This document shows positions 8,031 to 51,164 of a stretch of 64,000 bases of DNA, piece after piece (position 1 is the stretch's first letter; the number at the start of each line of letters is the position of its first letter). Origin of the DNA: Escherichia phage vB_EcoM-ZQ3; the sequence record MW630116.1. The stretch is one strand, 5' to 3'. The notes under the pieces were generated by a model, which did no database searches, was not told the DNA's origin, and was given only the letters and a program-made list of their open reading frames with translations. The translations under genes were made by a program, and so were the position numbers.

Positions 8031-8087
8031 TGTTTACAACTAAGTAGGTCTATGATATAGTAGTCCTATCTAAAAGAGGATAACATC
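8031..8087 (+). promoter_or_regulatory. early promoter cassette (GTTTAC -35, dyad-flanked -10 gatatagt, RBS)
   Basis: gtgtttacaactaagtaggtctatgatatagtagtcctatctaaaagaggataacatcATG; imperfect dyad aagtaggtc/gtcctat around the -10. Confidence 0.55.
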
Positions 8088-8279
8088 ATGAAATTTAAAT
8101 TTTTCTACGCAAAACATAAAGTGACCGGTGAGTTTGTTTCAATGTACAACACCGCAGATGACGAAGGGATGATTTATACTCATTTAGGTCTATCTCATTG
8201 GGACTCAGACGTGCCTTATATGTCATCTGAAGCCGAAATAACTCGTTTAGTTAATGGACATATGAACGACCCATTTTAG
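8088..8279 (+). CDS. hypothetical protein (63 aa)
   Basis: ORF track; preceded by promoter cassette and RBS. Confidence 0.5.
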   Translation: MKFKFFYAKHKVTGEFVSMYNTADDEGMIYTHLGLSHWDSDVPYMSSEAEITRLVNGHMNDPF

Positions 8280-8544
8280 TGTTATTCTTTCTAAAGACCT
8301 TAAAGAGGTTATCAACAAAGGATATATGGAACTCGCGGAAGTTGAGATATGAGCTCTAAAATGTGGATAGGAATATGGTTGCTTAGTATCCCTATGATTT
8401 GTATAGTATTTTCAATTGTATTGAGGTACTTATGAAAAATGCACTTATTATTGTACTAAGAACAATTTGTGATACGGGTTTTTACATCGCATGTTCGTTC
8501 ACTGGAACATGGTTGGCTTTAACATATTTTAATGTAATTTAATT

Positions 8545-8602
8545 GTTTACAACAAGGTAGGATTATGGTATAGTAGTCCTACTGAAACATGAGGAACACA
8601 AA
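8545..8602 (+). promoter_or_regulatory. early promoter cassette with 9-bp dyad (gtaggatta / tagtcctac) around the -10
   Basis: gtttacaacaaggtaggattatggtatagtagtcctactgaaacatgaggaacacaaaATG. Confidence 0.55.
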
Positions 8603-8803
8603 ATGGCTAAGCTTTTTAAAGATGTTGAAATTGGTGAAAAATTTGTTCTGAATAATGGTCAGCAGCTTATTCGTGTAGCTTCTATCGCCGGACAAACTCA
8701 TAACTGTATCGCCCCAACGTGTTGGACTCGATTCTTTATTGAAGATGACACTGAATGTTTAACTGTTGAAGAGCTTTTTGAACGTTCTGATATAGCCGAA
8801 TAA
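8603..8803 (+). CDS. hypothetical protein (66 aa)
   Basis: ORF track; promoter cassette and RBS upstream. Confidence 0.5.
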   Translation: MAKLFKDVEIGEKFVLNNGQQLIRVASIAGQTHNCIAPTCWTRFFIEDDTECLTVEELFERSDIAE

Positions 8804-8805
8804 AA

Positions 8806-8879
8806 TTGTACAAACTCTTGAGAGCAGAGTATAATGCTCTCATGGATTACAAAAACATTAATCAATTGAGGAAATTAGC
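8806..8879 (+). promoter_or_regulatory. early promoter cassette with 8-bp dyad (tgagagca / tgctctca) flanking TATAAT
   Basis: ttgtacaaactcttgagagcagagtataatgctctcatgg...gaggaaattagcATG. Confidence 0.55.
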
Positions 8880-9326
8880 ATGTCCAAATATTTAACTCGT
8901 AAAGACCTTCTGGCAGTTGGCGGTGAAGTTGTTGCAGTAGTTCGTAATGGTGAATACGGTTCTGAAGTTTCTAAAGAGTTTCGTTCTCGTGAAGGTTTTT
9001 ACTTCTTTGTTAAAGGTTCATCTGACTGGCGTCAAGTAGCAGCACGATTCTTTGTAGGACGTCAACGTTCTAAACAAGGGTTGGATGCAATTCTTTCTCA
9101 CATTCGTCAAGGCCGTTCGCAACTAGCCCGTACTATGGGCACTAACAATATTGAATATGATGTAATCTTTGTCGCAGCTAAGAACATGAAACCCCTGACT
9201 ACTGGTTATGGTAAAGGACAATTGGCTCTGGCATTCACTCGCAATCATACATCAGAATATCAAACACTCACTGAAATGAACCGTCTTCTGGCAGATAATT
9301 TCAAATTCGTTCTGCAGAGTTACTAA
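8880..9326 (+). CDS. ndd: Ndd nucleoid disruption protein
   Basis: 148-aa ORF; C-terminal ...[45 protein letters not shown] matches T4 Ndd as I recall it. Confidence 0.8.
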
Positions 9327-11071: not shown

Positions 11072-11092
11072 GGGAGCTTCGGCTCCCTTTTG
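11072..11092 (+). terminator. rho-independent terminator (gggagcttcggctccc + T-run)
   Basis: 6-bp stem with UUCG loop followed by ttttgtgcattttt. Confidence 0.65.
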
Positions 11093-11112
11093 TGCATTTT
11101 TCTCACAAAACA

Positions 11113-11180
11113 GTTTACACGTGCTTCAAACATGATATTATAGACCTATCAAAACAAAACAACCAAATTGGAGAAATAAA
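11113..11180 (+). promoter_or_regulatory. early/middle promoter-leader cassette (GTTTAC, TGCTTCA MotA-box-like, -10, RBS), copy 1
   Basis: gtttacacgtgcttcaaacatgatattatagacctatcaaaacaaaacaaccaaattggagaaataaaATGtctaaa; near-identical to copy at 11435..11500. Confidence 0.55.
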
Positions 11181-11396
11181 ATGTCTAAAATGAAATTAAC
11201 CCAAAACACAACTACTCGTTTTGGTAAAGTTAAACCTGGTATGAATGCTCCCCGTAAAGCACTTGTTGAAGAATTAAATTTCTTAGAAGTTGAAATCAAT
11301 TCTTTAGTGGTTCGCGGTTCAAATGGACATCATTTAGAAAAGCTTCGTTCTAAAAAGGCAAAACTTATTGGCCTTATTAAAGAAATGAGTTTGTAA
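11181..11396 (+). CDS. hypothetical protein (71 aa)
   Basis: ORF track; begins MSK from the duplicated cassette; followed by hairpin gggcttttggaaaaagagccc. Confidence 0.5.
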   Translation: MSKMKLTQNTTTRFGKVKPGMNAPRKALVEELNFLEVEINSLVVRGSNGHHLEKLRSKKAKLIGLIKEMSL

Positions 11397-11434: not shown

Positions 11435-11500
11435 GTTTACTTTTGCTTCAAACATGATATTATAGACCTATCAAAACAAATACTAATTTGGAGAAATAAA
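11435..11500 (+). promoter_or_regulatory. early/middle promoter-leader cassette, copy 2 (upstream of motA)
   Basis: gtttacttttgcttcaaacatgatattatagacctatcaaaacaaatactaatttggagaaataaaATGtctaaa. Confidence 0.55.
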
Positions 11501-12133
11501 ATGTCTAAAGTTACTTACATCATCAAAGCTTCTGAAAACGTTCTGAATGAAAAAACTGCTGCAATAATGGTTTATATCATTAAGAACAACTTCACCACTG
11601 CTGCCAATGTCCGTGAAGCTCTGGAAGCTGAATACAATGCATCAGTTGTTAACTCTAACATTGGTGTATTGATTAAGAAAGGTTTAGTCGAAAAATCTGG
11701 TGATGGACTTATAGCAACAGGCGAAGCAATGGATATTATCCAAAAAGCTGCAGACCTCTTTGCCCAAGAAAATGCTCCAGAACTTCTTCAGAAACGTAAC
11801 ACTAGAAAAGCACGTGGAGTTACTCCCGAAATGCATGAATTAGCAAACTTTGTTTTTGAAAATATTAAAGATAAAGTTGAAGTTAAAGAAATTGGTGAAA
11901 ACCGTAGTAACTTGGAAGTTCGATTTGCAAAACGAGTTCTAGGTATTCGTCAGATCGAAATTCGTCGAGATGGTTGTCTTAGAATATTTGCATACAACAT
12001 GTCAGAAACTGAATCAAAGCTGTTTACTTCTCTTGAAAATGATGTTAAGATTAAGATCGGTGGTAAATATACTTACATTGACTTCCCTAATGTGTCCAAA
12101 GAAATCATTACCCTTGTAACTAACGTACTGTGA
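11501..12133 (+). CDS. motA: MotA middle-transcription activator
   Basis: 210-aa ORF starting MSKVTYIIKAS...VVNSNIGVLIKKGLVEKSGDGLI...QENAPELL, matching T4 MotA as I recall it (T4 MotA 211 aa). Confidence 0.9.
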   Translation: MSKVTYIIKASENVLNEKTAAIMVYIIKNNFTTAANVREALEAEYNASVVNSNIGVLIKKGLVEKSGDGLIATGEAMDIIQKAADLFAQENAPELLQKRNTRKARGVTPEMHELANFVFENIKDKVEVKEIGENRSNLEVRFAKRVLGIRQIEIRRDGCLRIFAYNMSETESKLFTSLENDVKIKIGGKYTYIDFPNVSKEIITLVTNVL

Positions 12134-13812: not shown

Positions 13813-13963
13813 TCTTCAGAACGTAGTAGAGGCCGAACGTGAGCGTGAGGCTTTAGTCTATAATGAACTATTAGTTCCGTTCTTGGCCTTACACTCGTAC
13901 GAACAGGAAGACTACACCAATTACGTTAAAAGCGTAGAAAAAGCCATTTACAATCAACACTGA
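13802..13963 (+). CDS. hypothetical protein (53 aa)
   Basis: ATG 13802 with aggaa RBS inside ORF-track entry 13748..13963; overlaps previous gene by 11 nt. Confidence 0.4.
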   Translation: MSHNLQNVVEAEREREALVYNELLVPFLALHSYEQEDYTNYVKSVEKAIYNQH

Positions 13964-14009
13964 TAATGGTACTATATCCATATCAACTAAGTGGAATGAA
14001 TAAAACGTT

Positions 14010-14282
14010 ATGAATAAAGACATTGAAATCGTACGTGAAATTATTACTATTGCTTCTATTTTGATTAAATTCTCTAGGGAAGATATTGTTGAAGACCGAG
14101 CAAGTTTCATCGGATTCTTGAATGAGATTGGAATTAAAAAAGATGGTCGGCAGCTAAATCAGAATTCGTTCAGAAAACTAATTACAAATTTAACTGCCGA
14201 AGAAAAGAAAACACTGATTAGTGAATTCAATGAAGGTTTTGAAAATATTTATCGTCATTTAGCGATGTATTCTAACAACTAA
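14010..14282 (+). CDS. asiA: AsiA anti-sigma-70 factor
   Basis: 90-aa ORF MNKDIEIVREIITIASILIKFSREDIVEDRASF...EFNEGFENIYRHLAMYSNN, matching T4 AsiA (90 aa) as I recall it. Confidence 0.9.
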   Translation: MNKDIEIVREIITIASILIKFSREDIVEDRASFIGFLNEIGIKKDGRQLNQNSFRKLITNLTAEEKKTLISEFNEGFENIYRHLAMYSNN

Positions 14283-14942
14283 TTATTTGGCCCTTCCTAG
14301 TATTCGGATTGCTTGGTTGCATATAGCCGCTAAGCGATCTTCCTCAAGTATATTACTCCCCTTATACCAATACATCGTCACAGTTCCAGCATAGATGTTA
14401 TCCAAATTAAAGTATGGGCAACTATACATATAAGAAAGTTCGGCGGTCTTAGATTTTGTAGGCAAAAATGCAAATTCTGATTTAGATGAGAAATGACGGC
14501 CACTTAAATGAATTATATATTCATTGGCCGTTTTATCCACAGGGAATCCGCCAAGGGACTTTTCAGAAATTGTGCTAGGTAGTTTGCCTTCGTAAGCTAT
14601 AAGGTCGACGAAATAATTTAAGTTTTTAGGTCTGAAAGAATACACAGCACTAAAATCTGCACCAGATGAGATATGAACTATTTGCAGTTGTTCTAGAGCC
14701 GCAGATTCAAAACGTAAAGCTCGTTCTTTTTGGATTATTTCAGTATAAGTATCATACTTAGCTCTTACATAATAATCCAGCAAAATACTTCCTTTGTACC
14801 ATATTAGTGCCATTAGGAACAAAAGAATAATTACCGCTACTCGAGACATTAAAACCTTTCCAGTAGCGTTATCTTTGAAAATACGATCTAGCAACCCAAA
14901 TAGAATATCACTAGGCGAAGATGATACTTTTGGTGTTGCCAT
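14283..14942 (-). CDS. t: holin T
   Basis: 219-aa ORF MATPKVSSSPSDILFGLLDRIFKDNATGKVL...AICNQAIRILGRAK, matching T4 holin T (218 aa) as I recall it; convergent with asiA with no gap. Confidence 0.9.
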   Translation of the reverse strand: MATPKVSSSPSDILFGLLDRIFKDNATGKVLMSRVAVIILLFLMALIWYKGSILLDYYVRAKYDTYTEIIQKERALRFESAALEQLQIVHISSGADFSAVYSFRPKNLNYFVDLIAYEGKLPSTISEKSLGGFPVDKTANEYIIHLSGRHFSSKSEFAFLPTKSKTAELSYMYSCPYFNLDNIYAGTVTMYWYKGSNILEEDRLAAICNQAIRILGRAK

Positions 14943-14951
14943 AATACCTCC

Positions 14952-15503
14952 TTACTTAAAGATATTTATAATCGCTTTGACAATAGATTTGTTTTCAAGG
15001 TCAGGGAATTTAGGGAATTCACCGCCGAGATGTTCATGTTTTTCTAAAAGGGCAAAGAATTTTTTGAGCTCTTTAAATTTTCGTTTTTCTTCTCTATTAG
15101 CAACCTCTGCGTCAATAAGAGAACTTAAAACACTGAATAATTTATAGAGTTCATGAATTTTCTTATCACGTTGAACTACGCATTTATACGCTTCATCTTC
15201 CTTCCACCCGGCGTCGGTCCAAATGTCAAATTCACCAGGTTCTTCTGTAGTAACATTTTGAAGAGCGCCCGGAGTGTCAATAACAATTTTTTGCTTATCA
15301 TAAGTCCATACTGTTTTTCCACGATGGTCTTCAACATATACCCATTCTTGTTCGCGTTCATCAAATACAACAGCATAGCCTTCTTTAGGGTCTAAAGGTT
15401 TTTTAACTGTTGAATGAGCAGGAAGACCAAGACCTTTAATCAGTTTGTAATTTTCTTCTTTGTAAAATTCTTTTGTGTCAAAATAATAATGATAGATTTT
15501 CAT
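14952..15503 (-). CDS. 38: gp38 tail fibre assembly chaperone (T4 type)
   Basis: 183-aa ORF MKIYHYYFDTKEFYKEENYKLIKGLGLPAHS...FFALLEKHEHLGGEFP; length equals T4 gp38; adjacent to gene 37. Confidence 0.88.
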   Translation of the reverse strand: MKIYHYYFDTKEFYKEENYKLIKGLGLPAHSTVKKPLDPKEGYAVVFDEREQEWVYVEDHRGKTVWTYDKQKIVIDTPGALQNVTTEEPGEFDIWTDAGWKEDEAYKCVVQRDKKIHELYKLFSVLSSLIDAEVANREEKRKFKELKKFFALLEKHEHLGGEFPKFPDLENKSIVKAIINIFK

Positions 15504-15510
15504 ATTTAGA

Positions 15511-15526
15511 AGGGGCCGAAGCCCCT
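15511..15526 (-). other. CUUCGG hairpin between genes 37 and 38 (no T-run)
   Basis: aggggccgaagcccct on the plus strand, i.e. a GGGGC-UUCG-GCCCC hairpin on the mRNA strand immediately upstream of the gene 38 start. Confidence 0.5.
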
Positions 15527-15530
15527 CTCC

Positions 15531-18500: not shown

Positions 18501-18671
18501 TTGGCCGCCTTTAGCAAAACCCAGATCAATGATATTTCCTGAATCGTCTTTAGTAAAAATTGTTCTATCTTTTAAGTTTATAGCCAATTCACCTTCGGCT
18601 AATACTGAAGCAGCAGGACGTGCACCTGCAGTTTTGCTTCTTTTAAATTGTATTTGTTTTAAAGTAGCCAT
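15531..18671 (-). CDS. 37: gp37 long tail fibre distal subunit (receptor-binding, His-box tip)
   Basis: 1046-aa ORF; C-terminal His-box repeats GNHNHN / [33 protein letters not shown] typical of T4-type gp37. Confidence 0.9.
15931..16020 (-). repeat. three tandem copies of a roughly 30-bp in-frame repeat inside gene 37 (encodes [10 protein letters not shown] repeats)
   Basis: gtcttagtaccatagtcgaagctacttgtt / gtcttagtaccataatcaaaacttgacgtg / gttttagtacccaagtcagtactcgaagca (plus strand); protein shows ...[25 protein letters not shown]... Confidence 0.8.
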
Positions 18672-18679
18672 AAGTCCTC

Positions 18680-19345: not shown

Positions 19346-19369
19346 AGTTGTCTCCTTATATGTATACCA

Positions 19370-19377
19370 TATTTATA
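19370..19377 (-). promoter_or_regulatory. late promoter TATAAATA for gene 36
   Basis: Plus strand tatttata at 19370-19377 is TATAAATA on the minus strand, about 25 nt upstream of the gene 36 start. Confidence 0.6.
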
Positions 19378-19384
19378 CAAAAAT

Positions 19385-19402
19385 GGGAGACCGAAGTCTC
19401 CC
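19385..19402 (-). terminator. terminator after gene 35 (gggagacttcggtctccc + U-run on minus strand)
   Basis: Plus strand gggagaccgaagtctccc; on the minus strand the hairpin is followed by atttttg. Confidence 0.6.
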
Positions 19403-24460: not shown

Positions 24461-24522
24461 GTTTACGCTTTCAAATGAGTGTGTTACTATAGACAAGTTG
24501 ACTAACTGAACAAGAGGTTCAT
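24461..24522 (+). promoter_or_regulatory. early promoter (GTTTAC ... tactatag) for rnh
   Basis: gtttacgctttcaaatgagtgtgttactatagacaagttgactaactgaacaagaggttcatATG. Confidence 0.5.
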
Positions 24523-25440
24523 ATGGATTTAGAAATGATGTTGGATGAAGATTACAAAGAAGGTATTGCACTTGCCGACTTTAGTAACATTGCATTGGCC
24601 GCCGCATTAAACAACTTTGAAGACGGCGATAAAATTACTGTTCCGATGGTTCGCCATGTAATCTTGAATTCAATTCGTAAAAACGTGGTGATGTTCCGTA
24701 AGCAAGGCTATACAAAATTTGTATTGTGTATGGATAATGCTACTTCAGGTTATTGGCGTCGTGACTTTGCTTACTATTACAAGAAAAATCGTAAAACCGA
24801 TCGTGAAGCTTCAAAGTGGGATTGGGAAGGATATTTTACTGCACTCCATCAAGTTGTTGATGAGATTAAGAAATACATGCCATACGTTGTAATGGATATT
24901 GACAAGTATGAAGCGGATGACCATATCGGTGTATTAACTAAATATTTGTCATTAGCTGGTCATAAGGTATGTATTGTTGCATCAGATGGTGACTTTACAC
25001 AATTACACAAATATCCTAACGTTAAACAGTGGTCGCCACCACAGAAAAAATGGGTTAAAATTAAGAACGGTTCTGCTGAAATTGATTGCATGACTAAAAT
25101 TCTTAAAGGTGACCGTAAAGATGGCGTTGCATCTGTTCGAGTTCGTGGTGACTTCTGGTTTACTCGAGTTGATGGTGAACGAACTCCGAGCATGAAAACA
25201 ACGATTATTGAAGCAATTGCCAATGACCGTTCTCAAGCCGAAGTATTATTAAGTGCAGAAGAATATAAACGGTATCAAGAAAATTTGGTTCTCATTGATT
25301 TTGATTATATCCCTGATAATATTGCTTCAACCATTATAGAGTATTATAACTCATATAAACCACAACCTAAAGGCAAGATTTATTCATACTTTGTAAAATC
25401 TGGTCTTTCTAAATTAACAAGTGTAATTAATGAATTCTGA
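24523..25440 (+). CDS. rnh: RNase H (5'-3' exonuclease / flap endonuclease)
   Basis: 305-aa ORF (T4 RNase H 305 aa); sequence matches T4 rnh as I recall it; synteny next to gene 34. Confidence 0.9.
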   Translation: MDLEMMLDEDYKEGIALADFSNIALAAALNNFEDGDKITVPMVRHVILNSIRKNVVMFRKQGYTKFVLCMDNATSGYWRRDFAYYYKKNRKTDREASKWDWEGYFTALHQVVDEIKKYMPYVVMDIDKYEADDHIGVLTKYLSLAGHKVCIVASDGDFTQLHKYPNVKQWSPPQKKWVKIKNGSAEIDCMTKILKGDRKDGVASVRVRGDFWFTRVDGERTPSMKTTIIEAIANDRSQAEVLLSAEEYKRYQENLVLIDFDYIPDNIASTIIEYYNSYKPQPKGKIYSYFVKSGLSKLTSVINEF

Positions 25441-27706: not shown

Positions 27707-27728
27707 GGGAGACTTCGGTCTCCCTTTT
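27707..27728 (+). terminator. rho-independent terminator (gggagacttcggtctccc + T-run)
   Basis: 7-bp stem with UUCG loop followed by ttttga. Confidence 0.65.
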
Positions 27729-27755
27729 GAGTATCTGTAAATTGCCAAAAAAGAT

Positions 27756-27813
27756 GTTTACTTCTTCCCTAGATGTGATATTATAGTTCTATCAACAACA
27801 TGAGGAAATCAAA
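27756..27813 (+). promoter_or_regulatory. early promoter cassette (GTTTAC ... gatattatag ... caacaacatgaggaaa RBS module)
   Basis: gtttacttcttccctagatgtgatattatagttctatcaacaacatgaggaaatcaaaATG. Confidence 0.55.
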
Positions 27814-28218
27814 ATGGAAATCGGAAAATCTTATATCATTAACCCTTTGTTTAAAGACGACTTTGTTCAAGAAGCACCACACAATAACGCTAAGATGTTA
27901 AAATTGATTGAACTCCACGGGCCTAGTTTTGTTGTAAACGGAATGGAACCTGATTATGATGGCGATACGCCAAACGTAGTAAGTGTAACTATGGAAGATG
28001 GTACTGTATGTTCTGCCGGTGGTGAAATTGAAACTTATTTTGAGATTTATCCTGACGAGTTCAAATACTTTATTGAGTACTTTACTGAGGTAACTTTAGA
28101 AAAGCCTCAACCTACTAACGAAGGTATAACTTTAGGTGTAACAAAAATCCATTGTATCGTAGATGAAACCAACGTCGACGAAATCATCAAACTTTTGCAA
28201 AAAACTTTTAAAAAGTAG
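27814..28218 (+). CDS. hypothetical protein (134 aa)
   Basis: ORF track; promoter cassette upstream. Confidence 0.55.
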   Translation: MEIGKSYIINPLFKDDFVQEAPHNNAKMLKLIELHGPSFVVNGMEPDYDGDTPNVVSVTMEDGTVCSAGGEIETYFEIYPDEFKYFIEYFTEVTLEKPQPTNEGITLGVTKIHCIVDETNVDEIIKLLQKTFKK

Positions 28219-28279
28219 TGTACAATCAGATAGGGTTATGTTATAGTAGTCCTATCAAATAAAAGTGAAGGAGAATAAA
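28218..28279 (+). promoter_or_regulatory. early promoter cassette with 6-bp dyad (gatagg / cctatc)
   Basis: gtgtacaatcagatagggttatgttatagtagtcctatcaaataaaagtgaaggagaataaaATG. Confidence 0.55.
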
Positions 28280-28528
28280 ATGAGATTGCAACGCCAGAGC
28301 ATCAAAGATTCGGAAGTTAGAGGTAAATGGTACTTCAACATTGTCGGTAAAGACGCTGAACTCCTTGAACAAGCCGAAGAAGCTTTACGTGAAATGGGTT
28401 GGAACGAAGAATGCGATGGATGTCCACTCTACGAAGATGGTGAAAGTGCAGGATTCTGGATTTATCATTCTGACGTCGATCAGTTTAAAGCTGATTGGAA
28501 AGTTGTTAAGAAAAATCTGAGGAAATAA
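28280..28528 (+). CDS. hypothetical protein (82 aa)
   Basis: ATG 28280 with gaaggag RBS inside ORF-track entry 28265..28528 (track start is GTG). Confidence 0.5.
   Translation: MRLQRQSIKDSEVRGKWYFNIVGKDAELLEQAEEALREMGWNEECDGCPLYEDGESAGFWIYHSDVDQFKADWKVVKKNLRK

Positions 28529-35389: not shown

Positions 35390-35390
<1 letters not shown>
34980..35390 (+). CDS. denA: endonuclease II (GIY-YIG family)
   Basis: 136-aa ORF (T4 DenA 136 aa) with GIY-YIG-like motif VIYAIAIDDELVYIGKTKNLKKRINYYR; position after nrdB as in T4. Confidence 0.8.
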
Positions 35391-36571
<1,181 letters not shown>

Positions 36572-36573
36572 TG

Positions 36574-36633
36574 GTTTACAAACACCAAGGAAGGTGTTAC
36601 TATGGTTTTTATCAACAACACGAGGAGAAAATT
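36574..36633 (+). promoter_or_regulatory. early promoter cassette (GTTTAC, dyad aacacc/ggtgtt, tactat -10, caacaacacgaggag RBS)
   Basis: gtttacaaacaccaaggaaggtgttactatggtttttatcaacaacacgaggagaaaattATG. Confidence 0.55.
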
Positions 36634-37134
36634 ATGAATATGCAATTGATTACTAACGATATGGTTGTGGCAGCATTTGGTGATTCTACAGATGGAATCC
36701 GAGTCTTTAAGAAAGGACGTCCAGTTGGTTATCTTACTGACCTACGTGTTACTCTAGCGAAAAATGCTAAAAAGAAGTTAAAGCAAAAGGAATATTCAAC
36801 ACGTTACACCGAAGAGAAACGTGAAGCGATGCCGGAAGCAGTTAATGCCATGGTAGAATTTCTTCAAAACAATTTGACTAAATATGACGCTAATGTGTTC
36901 ATTAATATTAGTCAACCAAATGTACATATCGCAGGTATAAAATTCTACATTATTTGCGACCCTCTTACCGACAAATTCAACCGCCTCGGAATTTCAAGTC
37001 CATATCATACAGCAGAAGAGTTGTGTGTATTGTTTGAATCGTACAAAATCCAGTGCGATGGTCCGAAAACCGTTCTTATCAATGGATTATCCCGAGATGA
37101 AATCATTGAGATTATTAAAACATGCTTAAAGTAA
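36634..37134 (+). CDS. alc: probable Alc (transcription terminator on dC-DNA), by size and synteny
   Basis: ATG 36634 inside ORF-track entry 36571..37134 gives 166 aa (T4 Alc 167 aa); lies between rnlA and the spanin pair as in T4; no motif confirmed. Confidence 0.5.
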   Translation: MNMQLITNDMVVAAFGDSTDGIRVFKKGRPVGYLTDLRVTLAKNAKKKLKQKEYSTRYTEEKREAMPEAVNAMVEFLQNNLTKYDANVFINISQPNVHIAGIKFYIICDPLTDKFNRLGISSPYHTAEELCVLFESYKIQCDGPKTVLINGLSRDEIIEIIKTCLK

Positions 37135-37765: not shown

Positions 37766-37980
37766 CTAAAGAACAACATGAATACATTAAAGGGCTTATC
37801 TATGAATCTGAAATGGCGGCTATGATTTATGGGCGCCAGATTCAACGATTAGAATCTTTGCCTCCGACTAATGACCGATTGTTAGTTCAGTCTCGTGCTA
37901 ATCTGAAAAATGAATATCAGAATAAGTGGGCAGTAGCGACTAAAGCTCTTCACGAGTATATTGAATCTTTAGTAAAATAG
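37756..37980 (+). CDS. hypothetical protein (74 aa)
   Basis: ORF track. Confidence 0.5.
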   Translation: MPMTKEQHEYIKGLIYESEMAAMIYGRQIQRLESLPPTNDRLLVQSRANLKNEYQNKWAVATKALHEYIESLVK

Positions 37981-38037
37981 TTTACAAACTCTCAGGAGCA
38001 GAGTATAATGCTCCTATGGATAATTGAGGAAATCTAA
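37980..38037 (+). promoter_or_regulatory. early promoter cassette with 7-bp dyad (aggagca / tgctcct) flanking TATAAT
   Basis: gtttacaaactctcaggagcagagtataatgctcctatggataattgaggaaatctaaATG. Confidence 0.55.
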
Positions 38038-38336
38038 ATGAAAACATTACTAGAGAATTACATCAAACGGTCTGATGAGTATATTGATATCTGTCGTGGA
38101 ATGTCACTCGGCAATTATGACAAAGATGCAGCAAAGGCACTAGATGAAGCAGGTAAAGCTCTTCGTAAAGCTGCTAAAGAAAAAGGGTTGGATTTGCAAC
38201 AACTCAAAAGTCATATGATTAAATTTATTTCTTCAAACGTTAGAAGTACGTCAATTAATAAAAACGTTGCTGAAATTAATAAAGACCGGCGCGAGCATAA
38301 CATTCGTATTCTTGAAATTTTCTTAGGAATAAAATA

Positions 38337-40101: not shown

Positions 40102-40159
40102 GTTTACAACATGGTGGAGTTGTGATACTATAACTCTACCAACAAATGAGGAAATAGAA
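40102..40159 (+). promoter_or_regulatory. early promoter cassette with 9-bp dyad (ggtggagtt / aactctacc)
   Basis: gtttacaacatggtggagttgtgatactataactctaccaacaaatgaggaaatagaaATG. Confidence 0.55.
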
Positions 40160-40396
40160 ATGCTAAGTGAAAACCCAATTACAGTACACGAATTTCAGAT
40201 TAAAGTAAAAGAATTTGCTCAAGCACTCATCAATAAAGTGTCTGAACGTTTCCAAGATGCAACATTACGAGTTATTCAAGAATCTCCACGTTCTTTTCTC
40301 ATAATCGTTAATCCTAAAGATGGTGACCAAATTACTAATCTTAAATTAGGCAGTGATGGTCTTGTTGAAGCAACTCGAGTATATGGAACACTATAA
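40160..40396 (+). CDS. hypothetical protein (78 aa)
   Basis: ORF track. Confidence 0.5.
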   Translation: MLSENPITVHEFQIKVKEFAQALINKVSERFQDATLRVIQESPRSFLIIVNPKDGDQITNLKLGSDGLVEATRVYGTL

Positions 40397-40516
40397 TGAG
40401 AGCTATCTCATTACTATCGTGAATGGTCATAAATCTGAGCACTACCAACTTAGCCTGTCTAATCCGGTTAAAGGTATTGTTGAATCAGAATCTGTTTATA
40501 TCTCCTAAGGATTGTT

Positions 40517-43151: not shown

Positions 43152-43516
43152 GTTAAATCGAGGAGCCGTCGAACTGTCTGATTAATGATTTGCGAATCAT
43201 TATAGTTTTAAGACCCCGGCAGTTTTACGGTGTACCTCTTGAATGTTATTCTTATAGCGGCAAGTGCATGCTACCCCGAGGTGATGGCCAATCGGGAGTA
43301 CGCCTCAAGGCCTATATATCCATCAGTATATATCTTATCCTCGAGAAATCGAACCCGGAACCTTTAAGCTAACGGTGTGCAACAGATAAGAGCTATAAGG
43401 TATGATGACGGGTTTATGGTTATCCTGTCGTTAAATATCCGAAAACCTATGTTCCCCTTGAGGGCTTGCGCAGGCAATGTCAATAAGTCCTGCATTTTCA
43501 TTAAAGAGAATTTATA
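43152..43516. other. ORF-poor, relatively GC-rich intergenic region (about 365 nt) of unknown function
   Basis: No convincing ORF in any frame; contains hairpin taatgatt-tgcg-aatcatta (43183-43202); atypical for this otherwise tightly packed AT-rich genome. Confidence 0.5.
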
Positions 43517-43701: not shown

Positions 43702-43724
43702 GGGAGACTTCGGTCTCCCTTTTG
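43702..43724 (+). terminator. rho-independent terminator (gggagacttcggtctccc + T-run)
   Basis: Identical hairpin to the one at 27707; followed by ttttgtgcgttt. Confidence 0.65.
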
Positions 43725-43756
43725 TGCGTTTAGGGCAGAAAAAGTTTAAAAAAGAT

Positions 43757-43827
43757 GTTTACTCTCCTGTAGGATGTGTTACTATAGACTTGTACCACCT
43801 AATCAATAAAAACAACCGGAGAATAAA
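43757..43827 (+). promoter_or_regulatory. early promoter cassette (GTTTAC ... tactatag ... ggagaataaaATG)
   Basis: gtttactctcctgtaggatgtgttactatagacttgtaccacctaatcaataaaaacaaccggagaataaaATG. Confidence 0.5.
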
Positions 43828-44199
43828 ATGAACACTATCAATTTAAATGCTACAATTAAATGCCGTGACCATGATGGATATAAATCTCAAGTTGTTAACG
43901 AGTTACAGTGGATGGTTCGTTCAGTTCAAGGTGATGTGGTTTATTGTACAACTCCTGATGGCCCTTCAGACGATTTTTGTTATCATATCGAAATTGAAAA
44001 CTTTTTCACTGGTGAAATTTACCGTCTGAATTCTACAGTTTATGGTTGTATTCGTTCTAAAACTTACGAAGATGAAGAGACTGGTTACTCTGAAGATGTT
44101 GTATGGTACGAAAATGCCAGAAATCGTGCAGAGTCATTAATCGAGAAGATTAAAGCAAAAGGTGTTATTGATTCAGCTAAGTGGACAAAAATCAAATAA
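43828..44199 (+). CDS. hypothetical protein (123 aa)
   Basis: ORF track; promoter cassette upstream. Confidence 0.55.
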   Translation: MNTINLNATIKCRDHDGYKSQVVNELQWMVRSVQGDVVYCTTPDGPSDDFCYHIEIENFFTGEIYRLNSTVYGCIRSKTYEDEETGYSEDVVWYENARNRAESLIEKIKAKGVIDSAKWTKIK

Positions 44200-44203: not shown

Positions 44204-44273
44204 GTTTACTTTGGTACAGGTTATGTTATTATAGACCTGTACCAACAAACAACTTAAACATCTGGAGAATAAA
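44204..44273 (+). promoter_or_regulatory. early promoter cassette with perfect 8-bp dyad (ggtacagg / cctgtacc)
   Basis: gtttactttggtacaggttatgttattatagacctgtaccaacaaacaacttaaacatctggagaataaaATG. Confidence 0.6.
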
Positions 44274-44639
44274 ATGAACTACACCAACTTCGAACGCAAA
44301 TATGTTTCTAACGGTATCGCTGGTTCTATCGATATGGTTTGTTTGTGGAAGCATAAAAATGGTTCAGTATGTGAAATTGAGCAGTGCATGGCTCCTAATT
44401 ATGTTTATATGCGATTTGAAAATGGCATCACGGTTTCAATCACGATGGAAGGTTCCAACTTCAAAATTGCATTAGATGACGATTTCCGTCAACGTGATTT
44501 AGGTACTCATCCTTGCTGGAACGGTGTTAATCGTAAACTTCTGGTTAAAACTTGGATTCGTCATATCCTGAGTAACCGAGCTAAACCTGAACACCTGGAA
44601 GCAATCTTTGATGTAGTTCTGAACGAATTCGACATCTAA
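44274..44639 (+). CDS. hypothetical protein (121 aa)
   Basis: ORF track. Confidence 0.55.
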   Translation: MNYTNFERKYVSNGIAGSIDMVCLWKHKNGSVCEIEQCMAPNYVYMRFENGITVSITMEGSNFKIALDDDFRQRDLGTHPCWNGVNRKLLVKTWIRHILSNRAKPEHLEAIFDVVLNEFDI

Positions 44640-44674: not shown

Positions 44675-45289
44675 ATGTTTAAAGTTAATACTTTTTATAA
44701 AATGAATTTTAAAAATGGGGATATTACTCCACGCCTTAAAAACATGTTCTCATATGACCTTATCGAGCCTTTTGAAGTTTTAGAAGTTACTGATGCCGGC
44801 TCGGTTTGTGAAATTAGAACTTCTGAAGGTAAAATTTATCAGGCAGGTGTTGGTAAATTCAGTAATTGTTTTACTTTAATATTCTCGACCGATTTAGATG
44901 AGCATTTTATTGAATGTCCTAACCCTAAGGTCCACGAAGTTCCACATCAAGAAACTAAGAAAAATGGCCCGCACGAATATACGAAGGTTGAAACTCCTCA
45001 CGGCGTGATGTGGCGTCATAACTCTCCTTTTGGAAGTAAAGGAACATTTGCTCAACCGTCTAAACCGTATGACGATGAAAAATACATCGTCGTCTTTTTA
45101 TCTGAACAAGGTACTCAAGACCGTGGATGCCAGCGAAGTGGTTTACTAAGTGAACTTGAAGCTCATAACCAAGCACGTGAATTCGTTGAGAAAAATCCTG
45201 GTTCTGAAGCTCTAGTCATGAAAGCAATTACTCAATATATCACTGCTCAACCTGTTGTTCATCCGGTAGAAATTAATTTCGTTAAGTAG
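44675..45289 (+). CDS. hypothetical protein (204 aa)
   Basis: ORF track. Confidence 0.55.
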   Translation: MFKVNTFYKMNFKNGDITPRLKNMFSYDLIEPFEVLEVTDAGSVCEIRTSEGKIYQAGVGKFSNCFTLIFSTDLDEHFIECPNPKVHEVPHQETKKNGPHEYTKVETPHGVMWRHNSPFGSKGTFAQPSKPYDDEKYIVVFLSEQGTQDRGCQRSGLLSELEAHNQAREFVEKNPGSEALVMKAITQYITAQPVVHPVEINFVK

Positions 45290-45343
45290 TTTACATCCAA
45301 GGACGGATTAGAGTATAATGATTTCTTTAGTAAGTGGAAAAAT
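45289..45343 (+). promoter_or_regulatory. early promoter (GTTTAC ... TATAAT)
   Basis: gtttacatccaaggacggattagagtataatgatttctttagtaagtggaaaaatATG. Confidence 0.5.
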
Positions 45344-45541
45344 ATGAAATTTTTAATAGCACAAACAGTTCAATTAAAAGGTGTTGGAATTCCTGGGGTG
45401 ATTTTTAAAGTTCTCCCTGAATTTAAAACCGGCGCTGGAATTATCAATGAAGCGTATGCTGTTCAATGGGTTGATTGGACTTCTGACATACGTATGGGTA
45501 AAGAGTTATCTCCTATTAAAGGGTTGAAACATGTTGAATAA
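45344..45541 (+). CDS. hypothetical protein (65 aa)
   Basis: ORF track. Confidence 0.45.
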   Translation: MKFLIAQTVQLKGVGIPGVIFKVLPEFKTGAGIINEAYAVQWVDWTSDIRMGKELSPIKGLKHVE

Positions 45542-48775: not shown

Positions 48776-48963
48776 TGAAAGCTTATTTAGAAACAGTTAT
48801 TGTAGCTAAGAAGGATGGTGGAGATGTTTCCACCTCTTGCTCTCAGATTATATTAGATTTTCCTAATGAAAATTCGTATCGGGTTTTCGTAGATAACGTT
48901 AATGGGTACGAAAAAGGCCCTAATTTTGAAGTTTATCGTACTTTGCTCCCGATTGTGGATTAA
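48775..48963 (+). CDS. hypothetical protein (62 aa)
   Basis: ATG 48775 overlapping ligase stop (TAATG) inside ORF-track entry 48754..48963. Confidence 0.45.
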   Translation: MKAYLETVIVAKKDGGDVSTSCSQIILDFPNENSYRVFVDNVNGYEKGPNFEVYRTLLPIVD

Positions 48964-48984
48964 GAGCCTTCGGGCTCTTTTTGG
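48964..48984 (+). terminator. rho-independent terminator (agagccttcgggctct + T-run)
   Basis: 6-bp stem with UUCG loop followed by ttttgg. Confidence 0.6.
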
Positions 48985-49018
48985 CATAAATATAAATTAT
49001 TACTAAAAGGAAAACACT

Positions 49019-51106
49019 ATGTCTGAACAATTAAATGAAGTGTTTGAATCTGAAGGCGGTCTTCCTGTCGTCAATTTGAACCCTAAAGCTAAAGTTCCAC
49101 AAGTCTGGAAAATTGGTGATATCGATACAAACATCGTAGTTCGCTTATTCTCTTATCTTTCTGAAGGCGATGCTGTAAAACAAGTTAAACTTGGCGACAA
49201 ATATGCTCATGTTGTTATTATGAGTCTGTCTGAAAAGGGTAATCTCGCTGAATTGAAAAATGGCCTTGGTCCTGCTCCTATTGATGCAATCAACACTATT
49301 TTCAATACAGTATATGAACAGGTTAAAGCTCTTCGTATGGATGCAGTTCTGTTCCGGTTCCCTACCAAGAAATTGAAAGGACGTGGACAGCAGCTTCAAA
49401 CTCTTCTTGCTCGTTTAGTTTCTACTAAAACCGGTGGTCGTTTTAAAGTATTGTCGGCAATGTATCAATTCACAGGTAAACACACCTATGTGATGATGGT
49501 TCGTAAAAATGCTAACATTGAAGATATTAAAGGCATCCCTAACATTAACACAGAGTTGTACACGAAAGTAGATTCTGATGTTGGCGAAGTTTATGTGAGT
49601 AAAAAGACTGGCGAAACGGTCACCAAAGAAACAGCTATCGCTGGTTCTATTGCTGCTGTAGAAGAAAAACGTAAAGATAAGCCTGTTATTGCTCGTACTA
49701 AAATTTCTCGTCGTGCTATTGCAGCAAGTCAATCTTTAGAAGCTGACCGTCAAGAAGGTGAGTTATTCCAGAAATACGAAAATTCTGCTAAAGAAGTTAG
49801 TGGCCCAGCTACAGCCGAATTACTTCCTGAAGCATATGAAATCGTACTAGCCCAAGCATCGTCCACAGCAAAAGGCACTTTAGTTGCTGATATCGAAAAT
49901 AAGATTTATAATCGTATTGATGAATCCTTTAAATTTGCCGATGAAGTTTCTTATGGTAGTGTTATTAAGCCAACTTTAGAAAAGTTTGCTAAGAAAATTA
50001 AAACTGAAAAAACAACATCTGTTAAAGCATTAGCTGCTTTTGTTGAAGCTGCAAATGAAATTGCAGACTCTATTAAAGACGAATGGTTTGAAGATTTTAG
50101 ACGTGATAATTTCCAACTGCCCGACGACGTTTTAGCTGAAGTATCTGAAAGAACTTGGAAACAACGTAAATCAGCGTTCTTGTCTAATGTGATGTATACT
50201 TATGCACGGGAATCGGCTAGAGGCACCTTTAATATAACAATGAATCGGGACCCTAAACAATACTCTGTTGCTGAAAAACGAGCTATTCGTGAATATGCCT
50301 CTTCTGCGTATATCGATATCAATAATATGTTGTTAGGTCGTTATAAACCAGATTTTTACGATGTTGCAGATGAAGATGAAGTTAAACGCGCTATTGATGG
50401 TCTTGATTCGGCGTTTTTAAATGGAGACCGTTTACCTGAAGGACTAACGTTATATAGAGCTCAGTCTATCAGAATGCCTATTTACGAAGCAATGGTTAAA
50501 AATAAGGTATTCTACTTCAGAAACTATGTTTCCACTTCACTAGCTCCTATTATTTTCGGCGGGTTTAAAGAGAACGTTGCCCTTGGACTTGCTCCTGAAG
50601 AAGTTCGCAAAGAGCTTAACATTGATAATAATGACGAAGGTGTTACTATTTCTCCTAGTCAAGTAAGAACAGCTATGCATGCACCAGACCAAATCCGTGT
50701 TAACGTTGGATGGGCTATTGATGGCGCCCATAAAGTTAACGTGATTTATCCTGGACAGTTGAGTAATCACCCTAATGAGCAAGAAATTATTTTGCCTAGA
50801 GGCATTCTCTTGCAGATAAATAAAATTACAGATGCGTCATCTGACACTGGTGCAGGTTTAGAATCCAACCTTAAATTTATTCAAGCTGAAGTCATGTCCT
50901 CGGACCAGTTGGACGAAGCTGTCATTTACGACGGTGATGTTCTCATGGAAACAGGTGAGGTGGTTGCTATGACGGGTGAAATCGAATCAGATGAGCCGAT
51001 ATCGTTCTCCTCATTTGTAGAAAAAACTAGTGCTCCTAAAGGATTGAAATTGTTAGCATCTTTAATGGATTTAGAATCAGTTCCGTTTAAATTTGTCCAA
51101 GGATAG
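49019..51106 (+). CDS. alt: Alt ADP-ribosyltransferase (virion-packaged)
   Basis: 695-aa ORF (T4 Alt 682 aa); C-terminal region carries ADP-ribosyltransferase R-S-E triad candidates (YTYARESARG, NYVSTSLAP, EQEIILPRG); adjacent to ligase as in T4. Confidence 0.85.
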   Translation: MSEQLNEVFESEGGLPVVNLNPKAKVPQVWKIGDIDTNIVVRLFSYLSEGDAVKQVKLGDKYAHVVIMSLSEKGNLAELKNGLGPAPIDAINTIFNTVYEQVKALRMDAVLFRFPTKKLKGRGQQLQTLLARLVSTKTGGRFKVLSAMYQFTGKHTYVMMVRKNANIEDIKGIPNINTELYTKVDSDVGEVYVSKKTGETVTKETAIAGSIAAVEEKRKDKPVIARTKISRRAIAASQSLEADRQEGELFQKYENSAKEVSGPATAELLPEAYEIVLAQASSTAKGTLVADIENKIYNRIDESFKFADEVSYGSVIKPTLEKFAKKIKTEKTTSVKALAAFVEAANEIADSIKDEWFEDFRRDNFQLPDDVLAEVSERTWKQRKSAFLSNVMYTYARESARGTFNITMNRDPKQYSVAEKRAIREYASSAYIDINNMLLGRYKPDFYDVADEDEVKRAIDGLDSAFLNGDRLPEGLTLYRAQSIRMPIYEAMVKNKVFYFRNYVSTSLAPIIFGGFKENVALGLAPEEVRKELNIDNNDEGVTISPSQVRTAMHAPDQIRVNVGWAIDGAHKVNVIYPGQLSNHPNEQEIILPRGILLQINKITDASSDTGAGLESNLKFIQAEVMSSDQLDEAVIYDGDVLMETGEVVAMTGEIESDEPISFSSFVEKTSAPKGLKLLASLMDLESVPFKFVQG

Positions 51107-51164
51107 TTTACAAACACATGGATGTGTGATACTATCATCCCATCAACAACATGAGGAAAACGTT
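51106..51164 (+). promoter_or_regulatory. early promoter cassette with dyad (ggatg / catcc) and caacaacatgaggaaa RBS module
   Basis: gtttacaaacacatggatgtgtgatactatcatcccatcaacaacatgaggaaaacgttATG. Confidence 0.55.

Follow-up and report, generated by a model that had tools for sequence, protein, structure and literature searches.

The genome of Escherichia phage vB_EcoM-ZQ3 contains, between positions 8,031 and 51,164 of the 64,000 nucleotides analysed here (sequence record MW630116.1; hereafter the window), a family of repeated promoter-like cassettes with dyad symmetry at or near the -10 element, which raises the question of what these dyads are for and when a promoter has one. The window derives from an RB69-like T4-type coliphage (Mosigvirus), with approximately 97-99% identity to HX01, JS09 and phi25-307. 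The first-pass annotation had counted at least 15 intergenic sites of this kind, and this count is borne out. The pattern GTTTAC-N14-19-TANNNT has 20 matches in the window against 5.9 ± 2.5 expected, and a two-block PWM trained on 17 clear sites recovers all 17 and one more. The resulting 18 sites, at 8032, 8545, 8806, 11113, 11435, 13946, 24461, 27756, 28218, 35390, 36574, 37980, 40102, 43757, 44204, 45289, 51106 and 63595, are all on the + strand, which is the strand of early transcription, and 17 of them are intergenic; the - strand of the window has zero matches to this matrix. The match at 63595..63624 lies within gene 24.3, has no hairpin and is a doubtful member.

The sites display the features of T4-type early promoters: a GTTTAC-type -35 element, a 17-nt spacer (counted from TTTACA), TGn, TAnnnT and A-rich upstream sequence. 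The extended -10 TG and the A-rich stretch are found in the majority of the 18, and variant -35 elements occur at 8806 (TTGTAC), 13946 (ATTTAC) and 28218 (GTGTAC). The promoters sit 5' of, and face the same way as, motA, asiA, rnh, frd.2, frd.1, rnlA, alc, cd.2, 30.8, 30.7, alt.-3 and other genes. By their sequence they qualify as strong, sigma70-dependent promoters of the T4 early type (UP element, G-TTTAC(A) -35, TGn, TAnnnT -10), the class described for T4 by Hinton 2010 (PMC2988021), of which 57 were predicted in RB69 (Nolan 2006, PMC1524935). A literature search found no TSS or Term-seq paper for T4 or Mosigvirus, and start sites (about 7 nt past the -10) and 3' ends are predicted positions throughout. 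The predicted start site lies 18-38 nt before the ATG, with GAGGA or GGAGA as the Shine-Dalgarno (SD) sequence. Mean pairwise identity between cassette copies is 45% over 84 nt, compared to 26% for random pairs. Two broader statements of the first-pass annotation need correction. A shared RBS module was overstated, since exact ATCAACAACATGAGGAAA is present at only two cassettes (27791 and 51142); the copy at 36611 has two mismatches, those at 8545 and 40102 match more loosely, and a second module, GGAGAA(A)TAAAATG, is found at five others. Nor are most small hypothetical ORFs preceded by a cassette: of 37 + strand ORF calls shorter than 150 aa within 8031-51500, only 11 have one at most 110 nt upstream.

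Dyads occur in these promoters well above chance. When the spacer, the -10 and the following 14 nt were folded and compared with shuffles of the flanks (pass at p<=0.03), a significant inverted repeat within the spacer or around the -10 was obtained at 10 of 18 sites (56%), against 5% of 218 -10-like hexamers elsewhere in the window (binomial p ~3e-9); eight of the 18 show no significant local dyad. The four dyads cited earlier were recovered to within 0-2 nt. In the 30.7 promoter (44204..44276; cited dyad GGTACAGG 44213 / CCTGTACC 44236) a 15-bp hairpin, 44211-44225 / 44230-44245, surrounds the -10 at 44227-44232 (z -5.8), and in the cd.2 promoter (40102..40162; cited dyad GGTGGAGTT 40113 / AACTCTACC 40132) a 13-bp hairpin, 40112-40124 / 40129-40141, surrounds the -10 at 40126-40131 (z -5.0). 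The cassette upstream of ndd (8806..8882, -10 8830-8835) pairs TGAGAGCA 8819-8826 with TGCTCTCA 8835-8842 (z -4.5), and the early promoter of an RB69ORF231c homolog (37980..38040, -10 38004-38009) pairs AGGAGCA 37994-38000 with TGCTCCT 38009-38015 (z -3.9). The cassette of an ndd.x-like ORF (8032..8090; -35 8032-8037, -10 8056-8061, ATG 8088) has its -10 inside a hairpin at 8044-8069 (z -3.1), that at 8545..8605 (-10 8569-8574, ATG 8603) has 11 bp, 8556-8566 / 8573-8583, around the -10 (z -4.5), and the frd.1 promoter (28218..28282) has arms 28229-28239 / 28246-28256, again around the -10. These last three have TATAGTAGTCCTA with TAGG upstream in common, and are thus paralogs rather than independent cases. 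A modest hairpin, 13961-13985 (z -3.5), is found in the asiA promoter (13946..14012).

Bracketing of the -10 by the dyad, as first described, holds at many sites but not at 35390, 36574, 51106 and 45289, where both arms lie in the spacer. The rnlA promoter (35390..35449) has its hairpin entirely within the spacer (35397-35404 / 35408-35415, z -4.7), and the alc promoter (36574..36636) has a spacer hairpin ACACC/GGTGT at 36581-36598, followed by a T-rich stretch (z -2.3). The spacer palindrome ACACAT-gg-ATGTGT (51114-51127) of the alt.-3 promoter (51106..51167) is non-significant taken alone, as is the 4-bp spacer dyad ATCC/GGAT, the only one of the 30.5 promoter (45289..45346). Four more sites, 11113, 11435, 27756 and 43757, feature an upstream stem-loop, which in three of them is a UUCG terminator hairpin. 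Region 11072..11183 comprises such a hairpin (11072-11087) and then promoter 11113, region 27707..27816 the gene 32 terminator (GGGAGACTTCGGTCTCCC + TTTT, 27707-27724) and then the frd.2 promoter 27756, and region 43702..43830 the 30.9 terminator (43702-43719) and then the 30.8 promoter 43757; none of these three promoters, nor the motA promoter (11435..11503), has a core hairpin of its own. The rnh promoter (24461..24525), in the divergent region beside gene 34, has neither a hairpin nor a co-directional upstream gene. No Rfam family matched at gathering threshold anywhere in the window.

The presence of a core hairpin follows the context of the promoter. It is found in 10 of the 12 promoters in the window that abut the upstream ORF, and in none of the six that follow a UUCG terminator or are otherwise non-abutting (Fisher p = 0.0015). 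Terminator-preceded promoters of T4, IME08 and JD18 likewise have no local hairpin. The rule has exceptions: abutting promoters 45289 and 51106 show no significant hairpin, and several abutting promoters of CGG4-1 and IME08 have none. This distribution points to read-through RNA as the place where the hairpin functions, and away from promoter recognition and DNA recombination. In the literature searched, no description was found of such a terminator-or-hairpin rule, nor of the anti-SD helices at alc and 30.8 discussed below.

Compensatory changes, even within the -10, provide evidence at the sequence level that the hairpins are under selection across genera. At orthologous promoters in T4, in Dhaka-, Gelderland- and Jiaodavirus phages and in IMG/VR contigs, the hairpin is kept and its arms differ; that of 30.7 is the same in T4, IME08 and PSD2002. 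Covariation is strongest in the set of orthologs of the frd.1 promoter (28218), composed of 51 IMG/VR loci, the window and 8 other phage loci, or 31 unique sequences, nearly all of which have a 10-16 bp hairpin around the -10. In a 15-pair alignment, 9 of the 15 pairs show compensatory changes and 83.6% of cells are paired, against 31-51% in slid registers, and 0 of 500 shuffles, a control that leaves phylogeny in among orthologous sites that are not independent, reach the observed covariation score. A 13-pair alignment gives 5 of 13 compensatory pairs and 86.3% paired, against 25-44% in slid registers. One covarying pair takes in position 3 of the -10 itself (TACTAT/..ATGGTA.. versus TAGTAT/..ATGCTA..). 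Two compensatory pair changes separate the paralogs 8806 and 37980, and the 51106 palindrome reads CCACAT-gg-ATGTGG in IME08, a compensatory change relative to ACACAT-gg-ATGTGT here.

Taken as a whole, these observations are best explained, and with somewhat better than even probability, by a hairpin built into early promoters that serves as an intercistronic barrier or insulator in read-through RNA. In this compact genome the promoters lie immediately next to the stop codon of the gene before them; where a separate terminator does not fit, the non-conserved spacer would have evolved complementarity to the sequence just after, and partly including, the -10. With its 5' arm upstream of the predicted start site, the hairpin would be available only to RNA that continues out of the preceding gene, and promoter-initiated RNA would be unable to form it. 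In read-through RNA the hairpin would end within the first bases of the downstream message (about +1 to +7), where it may stand in for a terminator stem-loop, either by attenuating read-through or by marking and protecting the upstream message at its 3' end. In a minority of cassettes (43757 clearly, 27756 weakly), the same spacer position would be used as an anti-Shine-Dalgarno arm, such that read-through RNA would be poorly translated as well. Action as RNA rather than duplex DNA is suggested by better folding of the + strand than of the - strand (-12.8 vs -9.9 kcal/mol, Wilcoxon 1.4e-5) and by one G.U pair invariant in 9/9 sequences of the 13-pair alignment. This indication is only suggestive, as G.T modestly exceed A.C mismatches in the outer helix, outside TGn and the -10 (14 versus 10, or versus 5 without the dubious 13946).

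Two other readings also place the function in RNA. The hairpins could be bona fide intrinsic (Rho-independent) terminators of the upstream gene, as might be expected from their complementary distribution with UUCG terminators, from the T-rich stretch after 36581-36598 and from the reporter result of Arbiol for one RB49 stem-loop (PMC2839356), the stem-loop of PeSL211/210 having cut lacZ expression in that work about as much as rrnB T1. Yet the -10-bracketing hairpins run into (T)ATCAAC or ACCAAC instead of a U tract, A/U and G.U pairs abound in the stems, loops measure up to 9 nt, and a terminator scan of the window that detects all UUCG terminators detects none of them, flagging among core hairpins only 36581-36598, which qualifies weakly. 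The core hairpins are thus not canonical intrinsic terminators, and this reading is rather unlikely. An equally small chance is given to a mainly translational role, by which read-through RNA could not be translated, the arrangement known from T4 e, 49, soc and I-TevI, and the downstream gene would be expressed from its own promoter only. Beyond the T4 precedent (PMC3014915), this fits 43757 and its orthologs, where TCTCC in the spacer (43763-43767) complements the SD GGAGA at 43818-43822 (probability of SD pairing with pre-start nucleotides 0.97, p 0.01), as well as the cassettes upstream of alc in the majority of other T4-like phages, which are clearly designed in this way: in contigs of such phages the SD is fully paired to the spacer in 19 of 25 unique sequences. 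Within the window, such sequestration of the RBS is otherwise seen only weakly, at 27756, where TTCTTCC in the spacer may pair with the SD GAGGAA (0.84). Against it, the -10-bracketing and spacer-internal classes have their SD 20-35 nt past the hairpin, with predicted SD pairing of about zero in both, below shuffled expectation, so that a translational role does not explain the -10-bracketing class.

The remaining alternatives concern DNA. Inverted repeats might extrude as cruciforms or single-strand hairpins and act as recombination hotspots, in line with the shuffling idea for such elements that the first-pass annotation had cited, or as a shut-off switch disabling the -10. Some dyads are perfect Watson-Crick palindromes (51114-51127, 44213/44236), the mechanism of early-promoter shut-off is still unexplained, and one mini-circle crossover has been mapped to the loop of a PeSL stem-loop (Arbiol 2010, PMC2839356). 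The hotspot claim is weakly borne out, with one clean case: direct-repeat cassettes 11113 and 11435, whose copies 11122-11189 and 11444-11509 are the only long near-identical cassette repeat (68 bp, 92.6% identical), flank ORF 11181-11396, and in JK36 there is only one cassette and the ORF is missing. In addition, one further junction lies within a cassette 5' UTR in ATK47, and a segment replaced among the compared Mosigvirus genomes (44681-45528) contains one cassette. However, most other indels among these genomes lie away from cassettes (five such cases), and the sole clear case involves cassettes without a core hairpin. Inverted repeats with loops of 4-9 nt and arms of 7-15 bp are poor at extrusion. 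At the conserved G.U positions each of the two cruciform arms would contain a mismatch, the + strand folds better than the - strand, and a DNA function intrinsic to the promoter would not predict loss of the hairpin after terminators or where nothing transcribes in; this explanation is accordingly unlikely. That the dyads arise by chance, as a by-product of the promoter consensus, or as an operator for a dimeric protein is highly improbable. The sequence common to paralogs 8032, 8545 and 28218 could be read in this way, but the observed 56% contrasts with the 5% control rate, and arms differ among cassettes and orthologs with complementarity kept, which rules out a shared operator sequence as well as an artefact of the consensus; no half-site common to the cassettes or orthologs compared, as expected of a palindromic operator, was found. 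Under the preferred insulator reading, repeated cassettes could still be used as homology for unequal recombination, as seen for the 11113/11435 pair only.

It is tempting to speculate, as a possibility that we regard as less than even, that the spacer of these early promoters is a dual-use element, which sets the distance between -35 and -10 and also supplies the 5' arm of a helix that forms in RNA only upon read-through. Such a helix would have two outputs: an insulating hairpin ending at the downstream start site (frd.1, cd.2, 30.7, ndd and others), or an anti-Shine-Dalgarno arm by which read-through RNA is silenced (at 30.8 in this phage, at alc in most of the other T4-like genera). If true, the principle of e, 49, soc and I-TevI, known at a few late promoters, would apply to a large proportion of Tevenvirinae early promoters as well, and the anti-SD spacers of alc and 30.8 would put a classic T4 regulatory device to wider use. 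Expression of many early genes would then depend almost wholly on the gene's own promoter, which would help explain the sharp drop in early protein synthesis once early promoters are shut off. The arrangements also provide testable designs for the insulation of tandem phage genes.

The cassettes themselves are of a known kind, the PeSL (promoter-early stem-loop), expected in this phage since about 57 early promoters were predicted for RB69-type phages and PeSLs have been published for three T4-like lineages; what is added here is evidence for selection on the hairpins and on when and why a hairpin is present. The resemblance noted in the first-pass annotation is supported, since cassette anatomy corresponds to the published definition, in which an AT-rich region and a sigma70-like early promoter are combined with a stem-loop and with the SD and ATG of the gene that follows (Arbiol 2010, PMC2839356), with a significant spacer or -10 hairpin at 10 of 18 sites as the stem-loop adjoining or overlapping the promoter. 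In RB49 and phi1, the stem-loop is most often found in the interval from -35 to -10 or overlapping the -10 (PMC2839356), and the layout is alike: intergenic, repeated and early-facing, with cassette pairs flanking variably present small ORFs (here 11113/11435). Unlike the near-perfect TTGACA-N17-TATAAT promoters with G-run/C-run stems of RB49, reported as conserved over about 100 bp, those of this phage have a GTTTAC -35, heterogeneous A/U- and G.U-rich stems and about 45% identity over 84 nt. Promoter and terminator activity as well as mini-circles were shown experimentally for RB49/phi1, whereas the cassettes of this phage are known from sequence alone. PeSLs were extended to the T-even group (TTTACW-N17-TAYWAT) and the nt-1/KVP40 pair by Comeau 2014 (PMC4122927). 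As far as the accessible part of that paper goes, the PST/T4 elements have the same consensus and stem-loops upstream of the promoter (AGNA-loop-TCNT), a layout fitted by the terminator-plus-promoter cassettes 11072-11183, 27707-27816 and 43702-43830, whereas many hairpins here enclose the -10, as they also do in T4 itself (L004 8767, 21576, 24988). The promoters resemble the early promoters of T4 and RB69 (PMC2988021, PMC1524935) in GTTTAC at -36 to -31, TGn, TAnnnT and the A-rich UP region, those of RB69 also in a C-rich -3 to -1, and precede orthologs of early genes of T4 (motA, asiA, alc, rnlA, frd.x, cd.x, 30.x, alt.-3); a text search of these two papers turned up no dyads or hairpins described inside early promoters. 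A further parallel is T4 e, soc, 49 and I-TevI, where the promoter sits inside the 5' arm of an inhibitory hairpin or ahead of that arm, such that only read-through RNA folds (PMC3014915). Those are late promoters with the 3' arm over the SD or AUG, whereas the -10-bracketing hairpins here belong to early promoters and leave the SD free; the anti-SD variant (43757, and alc in other genera) would work in the same way as its T4 counterparts.

By sequence similarity, the phage is placed among the T4-type myoviruses as a member of the genus Mosigvirus (RB69-like), phi25-307, HX01, JS09, F2 and others being 97–99% identical to the window over 7–10 kb (megablast). Gene order was taken from annotated relatives. 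Early transcription runs along the + strand, which carries, in order, 39, rIIA, rIIB, denB, ndd.x, ndd, ac, 52, motA, arn.x and asiA, and, beyond the − strand genes t, 38, 37, 36, 35 and 34 (14283–24419), rnh, dsbA, 33, 59, 32, frd.2, frd.1, frd, td, nrdA, nrdB and denA; then rnlA, alc, pseT.x, pseT, cd.x, a DAHP synthase gene, cd, 31 and rIII; and finally 30.9 to 30.1, 30, alt and alt.-3, after which late baseplate genes lie on the − strand. The DAHP synthase gene (aroF/aroG-like, 40411–41506), located between cd.2 and cd, is also found in many Mosigvirus relatives and is absent in mar005P1; the boundaries of this indel are the gene ends, not promoter cassettes. At 31896–32832, nrdA is split into ORFs of 474 and 329 aa by a 236-aa ORF (32030–32740) that has domain matches to I-HmuI NUMOD-like, HNH and the I-TevI DNA-binding domain. 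This ORF, absent in ATK47, PhAPEC2 and mar005P1, looks like a free-standing homing endonuclease and recalls mobE of Aeromonas phage Aeh1.

The pattern GTTTAC-N14-19-TANNNT has 20 matches in the window, compared to 5.9 ± 2.5 in shuffled sequences. A two-block weight matrix trained on 17 clear promoter sites recovers these and one more, all 18 on the + strand and none on the − strand; sites are designated here by the coordinate of their −35 start. Most have a TGn motif preceding the −10, with an upstream region rich in A, and thus share the architecture of the ‘UP/-35/TGn/-10’ class of T4 early promoters (PMC2988021), of which 57 were predicted in RB69 (PMC1524935). As all defining features recognizable in sequence are present, the elements are considered T4-type early promoters. 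A generic TTGACA/TATAAT scan showed little or no enrichment (22 vs 24.8 expected in one region, 82 vs 64.2 ± 8.0 in another), with the cassettes as its top hits, so that a family-specific profile was required. The spacers of 11113 and 11435 contain a MotA-box-like TGCTTCA; assignment as middle promoters was dropped, since the motif lies 7 nt from the −10 and not at the 11–13 nt of the middle-promoter consensus (PMC1524935). A literature search found no TSS or Term-seq study of T4 or Mosigvirus. Separately, a possible middle promoter lies in the intergenic region before nrdA (30470–30560), where a MotA-box-like CGCTTCA is separated by 12 nt from a TATAAT and a 10-bp hairpin (AACGGGATAAATACTATCCCGTT) is also present; in mar005P1, nrdA.1 is inserted in the equivalent region.

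Many of these promoters contain a core hairpin, i.e. an inverted repeat in the spacer or around the −10. The four dyads cited in the first-pass annotation are all present, 0–2 nt from where it had placed them. When spacer, −10 and 14 further nucleotides were folded against versions with shuffled flanks and fixed −10, 10 of the 18 sites gave p≤0.03 (8032, 8545, 8806, 13946, 28218, 35390, 36574, 37980, 40102 and 44204), whereas 5% of 218 other −10-like hexamers in the window did so (binomial p 3e-9). At 8 sites the −10 lies between the arms and is partly contained in them; at 35390 and 36574, and weakly at 51106 and 45289, both arms lie inside the spacer. An Rfam scan gave no match. Two further claims of the annotation need to be narrowed: the supposedly shared ribosome-binding module occurs exactly (ATCAACAACATGAGGAAA) at 2 cassettes and in 3 looser copies and is not general, a second module, GGAGAA(A)TAAAATG, serving 5 other cassettes; and the statement that most small ORFs follow a cassette was too broad, as 11 of the 37 small + strand ORFs in range do. 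When IMG/VR was scanned with an exact pattern of promoter and UTR module, no more than 2 loci were found.

The presence of a core hairpin depends on what lies upstream. Classical terminators in the window consist of a G+C-rich stem closed by a UUCG tetraloop, together with a T run. Of the promoters lacking a core hairpin, 11113, 27756 and 43757 are each preceded by such a terminator and 11435 by another stem-loop; the rnh promoter 24461 has no co-directional gene upstream, and 63595 is a doubtful intragenic site. By comparison, where an upstream ORF has its stop codon directly against the −35 or overlapping it, 10 of 12 promoters carry one (Fisher p = 0.0015). In T4, IME08 and JD18 as well, promoters that follow a terminator have no local hairpin. 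With a stop codon touching the −35, only the spacer and a few bases after the −10 would be free for a post-gene stem-loop, and the hairpin would therefore be built there for lack of other free sequence. The UUCG hairpins form a family of their own, GGGAG(A)CTTCGG(T)CTCCC and variants (697, 7203, 9547, 11072, 27707, 34958, 43702, 44647, 48964 and 63429), most followed by a T run, which copies 34958 and 44647 lack; those at 27707–27729 and 43702–43724 are identical over 23 nt.

Syntenic regions were compared in Mosigvirus (ATK47, PhAPEC2, mar005P1) and beyond (T4, Dhakavirus IME08 and PSD2002, Gelderlandvirus CGG4-1, Jiaodavirus JD18). With the profile and folding test, hairpins of different arm sequence were found at orthologous promoters in all of these phages, upstream of frd.1, cd.2, 30.7 and the ORF231c homolog, and T4 has three strong −10-enclosing hairpins in the syntenic region (L004 8767, 21576 and 24988). 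Within the window, two compensatory pair changes separate the paralogs 8806 (GAGAGCA/TGCTCTC) and 37980 (AGGAGCA/TGCTCCT). Single-protein searches for related loci (30.7, cd.2) yielded near-identical relatives only. A Frd.1 protein alignment query retrieved 51 IMG/VR loci, and the resulting set, with the window and 8 other phage loci included, comprised 31 unique promoter sequences, nearly all with a 10–16 bp hairpin around the −10 and with widely different arms. The helix occurs in three registers (sums of paired positions relative to the −10 start of +1, −4 and −5); as the register shifts between lineages, no common structure could be imposed on all orthologs and pairs were counted per register group. 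In group A4, both sides changed in 9 of 15 pairs and 83.6% of cells were paired, compared to 31–51% with the partner column slid; in group A5, the values were 5 of 13 pairs, and 86.3% vs 25–44%. Neither covariation score was reached in 500 shuffles, controls which, like the slid registers, leave phylogeny in place. One covarying pair includes the third base of the −10 hexamer itself (TACTAT/..ATGGTA.. vs TAGTAT/..ATGCTA..).

In view of how many independent arm sequences there are, and of the contrast with the slid registers, it appears very unlikely that the hairpins are a product of chance or of the promoter consensus, and the chance explanation was rejected together with that of an operator, for which the window elements also tested negative. 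Termination and translational control were considered as well. The core hairpins are followed by (T)ATCAAC or ACCAAC without a U tract, and a scan that detected the UUCG terminators found none of the −10-bracketing hairpins and flagged only 36581–36598: they are not canonical intrinsic terminators. Pairing of the Shine-Dalgarno (SD) sequence with nucleotides preceding the start site has a predicted probability of about 0 at core-hairpin sites, which are thus predicted not to sequester the ribosome-binding site; among all window elements, 43757 alone tested positive for this.

Whether the structure matters in DNA or in RNA can be approached from its position. The expected start site is some 7 nt downstream of the −10, and positions −3 to −1 of RB69 promoters are rich in C (PMC1524935). 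The 3′ arm ends 7–13 nt after the −10 and the 5′ arm precedes the start site, so that transcripts started at the promoter cannot form the hairpin and only read-through RNA entering from the upstream gene can. Hairpin-bearing sites fold more stably as + than as − strand (−12.8 vs −9.9 kcal/mol, Wilcoxon 1.4e-5), whereas the strands do not differ at sites without a hairpin. One G.U pair is invariant in 9/9 sequences of group A5, where a perfect Watson-Crick partner would put a second −10-like hexamer (TATAGT) in the spacer; we infer that avoidance of such a hexamer may be the reason for its use. Counts of G.T vs A.C in the outer helix (14 vs 10, or 14 vs 5 without the dubious 13946) were too few to decide between RNA and DNA. 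The hairpin is likely to act at the RNA level, and its dependence on context also speaks against a role inherent in the promoter DNA. We incline slightly towards an intercistronic barrier or insulator formed in read-through RNA, replacing a terminator stem-loop. Such a hairpin would attenuate read-through, as was measured for one RB49 stem-loop by Arbiol et al. (PMC2839356), and could shield the upstream message at its 3′ end and leave the downstream leader presented unstructured.

In some cassettes, the spacer begins with bases that are complementary to the SD. At 43757, the 30.8 promoter, TCTCC pairs with GGAGA (43763–43822; P 0.97, p 0.01), and the IME08 and T4 orthologs have longer, covarying anti-SD helices; complementarity is weak at 27756. 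Loci upstream of alc were likewise retrieved with a protein-alignment query (IMG/VR T4-like contigs L082–L111; T4 region L004:18571–18640). In most other T4-like phages, the alc promoter features a helix of 8–15 bp between spacer and SD region, in many covarying versions, and in 19 of 25 unique sequences the spacer pairs with the whole of the SD; in the Mosigvirus alc cassette (36574), a local hairpin within the spacer takes its place. The logic is that known from T4 e, soc, 49 and I-TevI (PMC3014915), here applied to early promoters, and no description of this design at early promoters (alc, 30.8) was found in the searchable literature.

The first-pass annotation had also likened the cassettes to the promoter-early stem-loops (PeSLs) proposed as recombination hotspots. 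ORF 11181–11396 is flanked by cassettes 11113 and 11435, which have a 68-bp direct repeat in common (92.6% identical). JK36 lacks this ORF and has a single cassette aligning to both window copies, and other records show the same two-piece pattern over the region (97% coverage). On these alignments, this is a textbook PeSL-type event, the one such in the Mosigvirus comparison. In ATK47, a tandem frd.2-like duplication (L001 12348–12735) has its junction in the cassette leader, and the second copy kept the leader (caaatgaggaaatcaaaATG) with no promoter of its own; in PhAPEC2, a replaced segment (44681–45528) includes cassette 45289. Five other indels lie away from cassettes: the HNH homing endonuclease ORF that splits nrdA, the DAHP synthase gene, a small ORF (28529–28760), nrdA.1, and a 142-bp insert (43257–43398). 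As the cassettes average only 45% identity over 84 nt, a hotspot role is possible for near-identical pairs; as a general cassette property it does not emerge from this comparison, and the hairpins are not required for it. The 142-bp insert is non-coding, lies between rIII and 30.9, and shares about 95% identity with sequences of the Klebsiella/Enterobacter T4-like phages JD18, KPV15 and Marfa, in which the flanks are unrelated; ATK47, PhAPEC2 and mar005P1 have an unrelated 40–50 bp or so at this position. It has no Rfam match and an unremarkable fold (z −1.3), and is possibly a small mobile segment. Nearby, some 80 nt of non-coding sequence after rIII (43159–43235, aaatcgaggagccgtcgaactgtctgattaatgatttgcgaatcattatagttttaagacccc...) are near-identical in T4, ATK47 and the window, which is unusual for an intergenic stretch, genes being about 80% identical between those genera.

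Overall, the cassettes had been recognized essentially correctly from the outset, and their interpretation is supported. The kind of element is already known, although it had not been spelled out in this lineage; what is new is analytical, namely the covariation across genera, the rule of terminator or hairpin, and the anti-SD spacers. Should the dual-use reading of the spacer be confirmed experimentally, the finding would gain interest. In layout, the cassettes fit the PeSL definition (Arbiol 2010, PMC2839356; Comeau 2014, PMC4122927). They differ from the PeSLs of RB49 in promoter consensus, stem composition and lower copy-to-copy identity, and, unlike published T-even PeSLs, in which the stem lies upstream of the promoter, many of the window stems enclose the −10.
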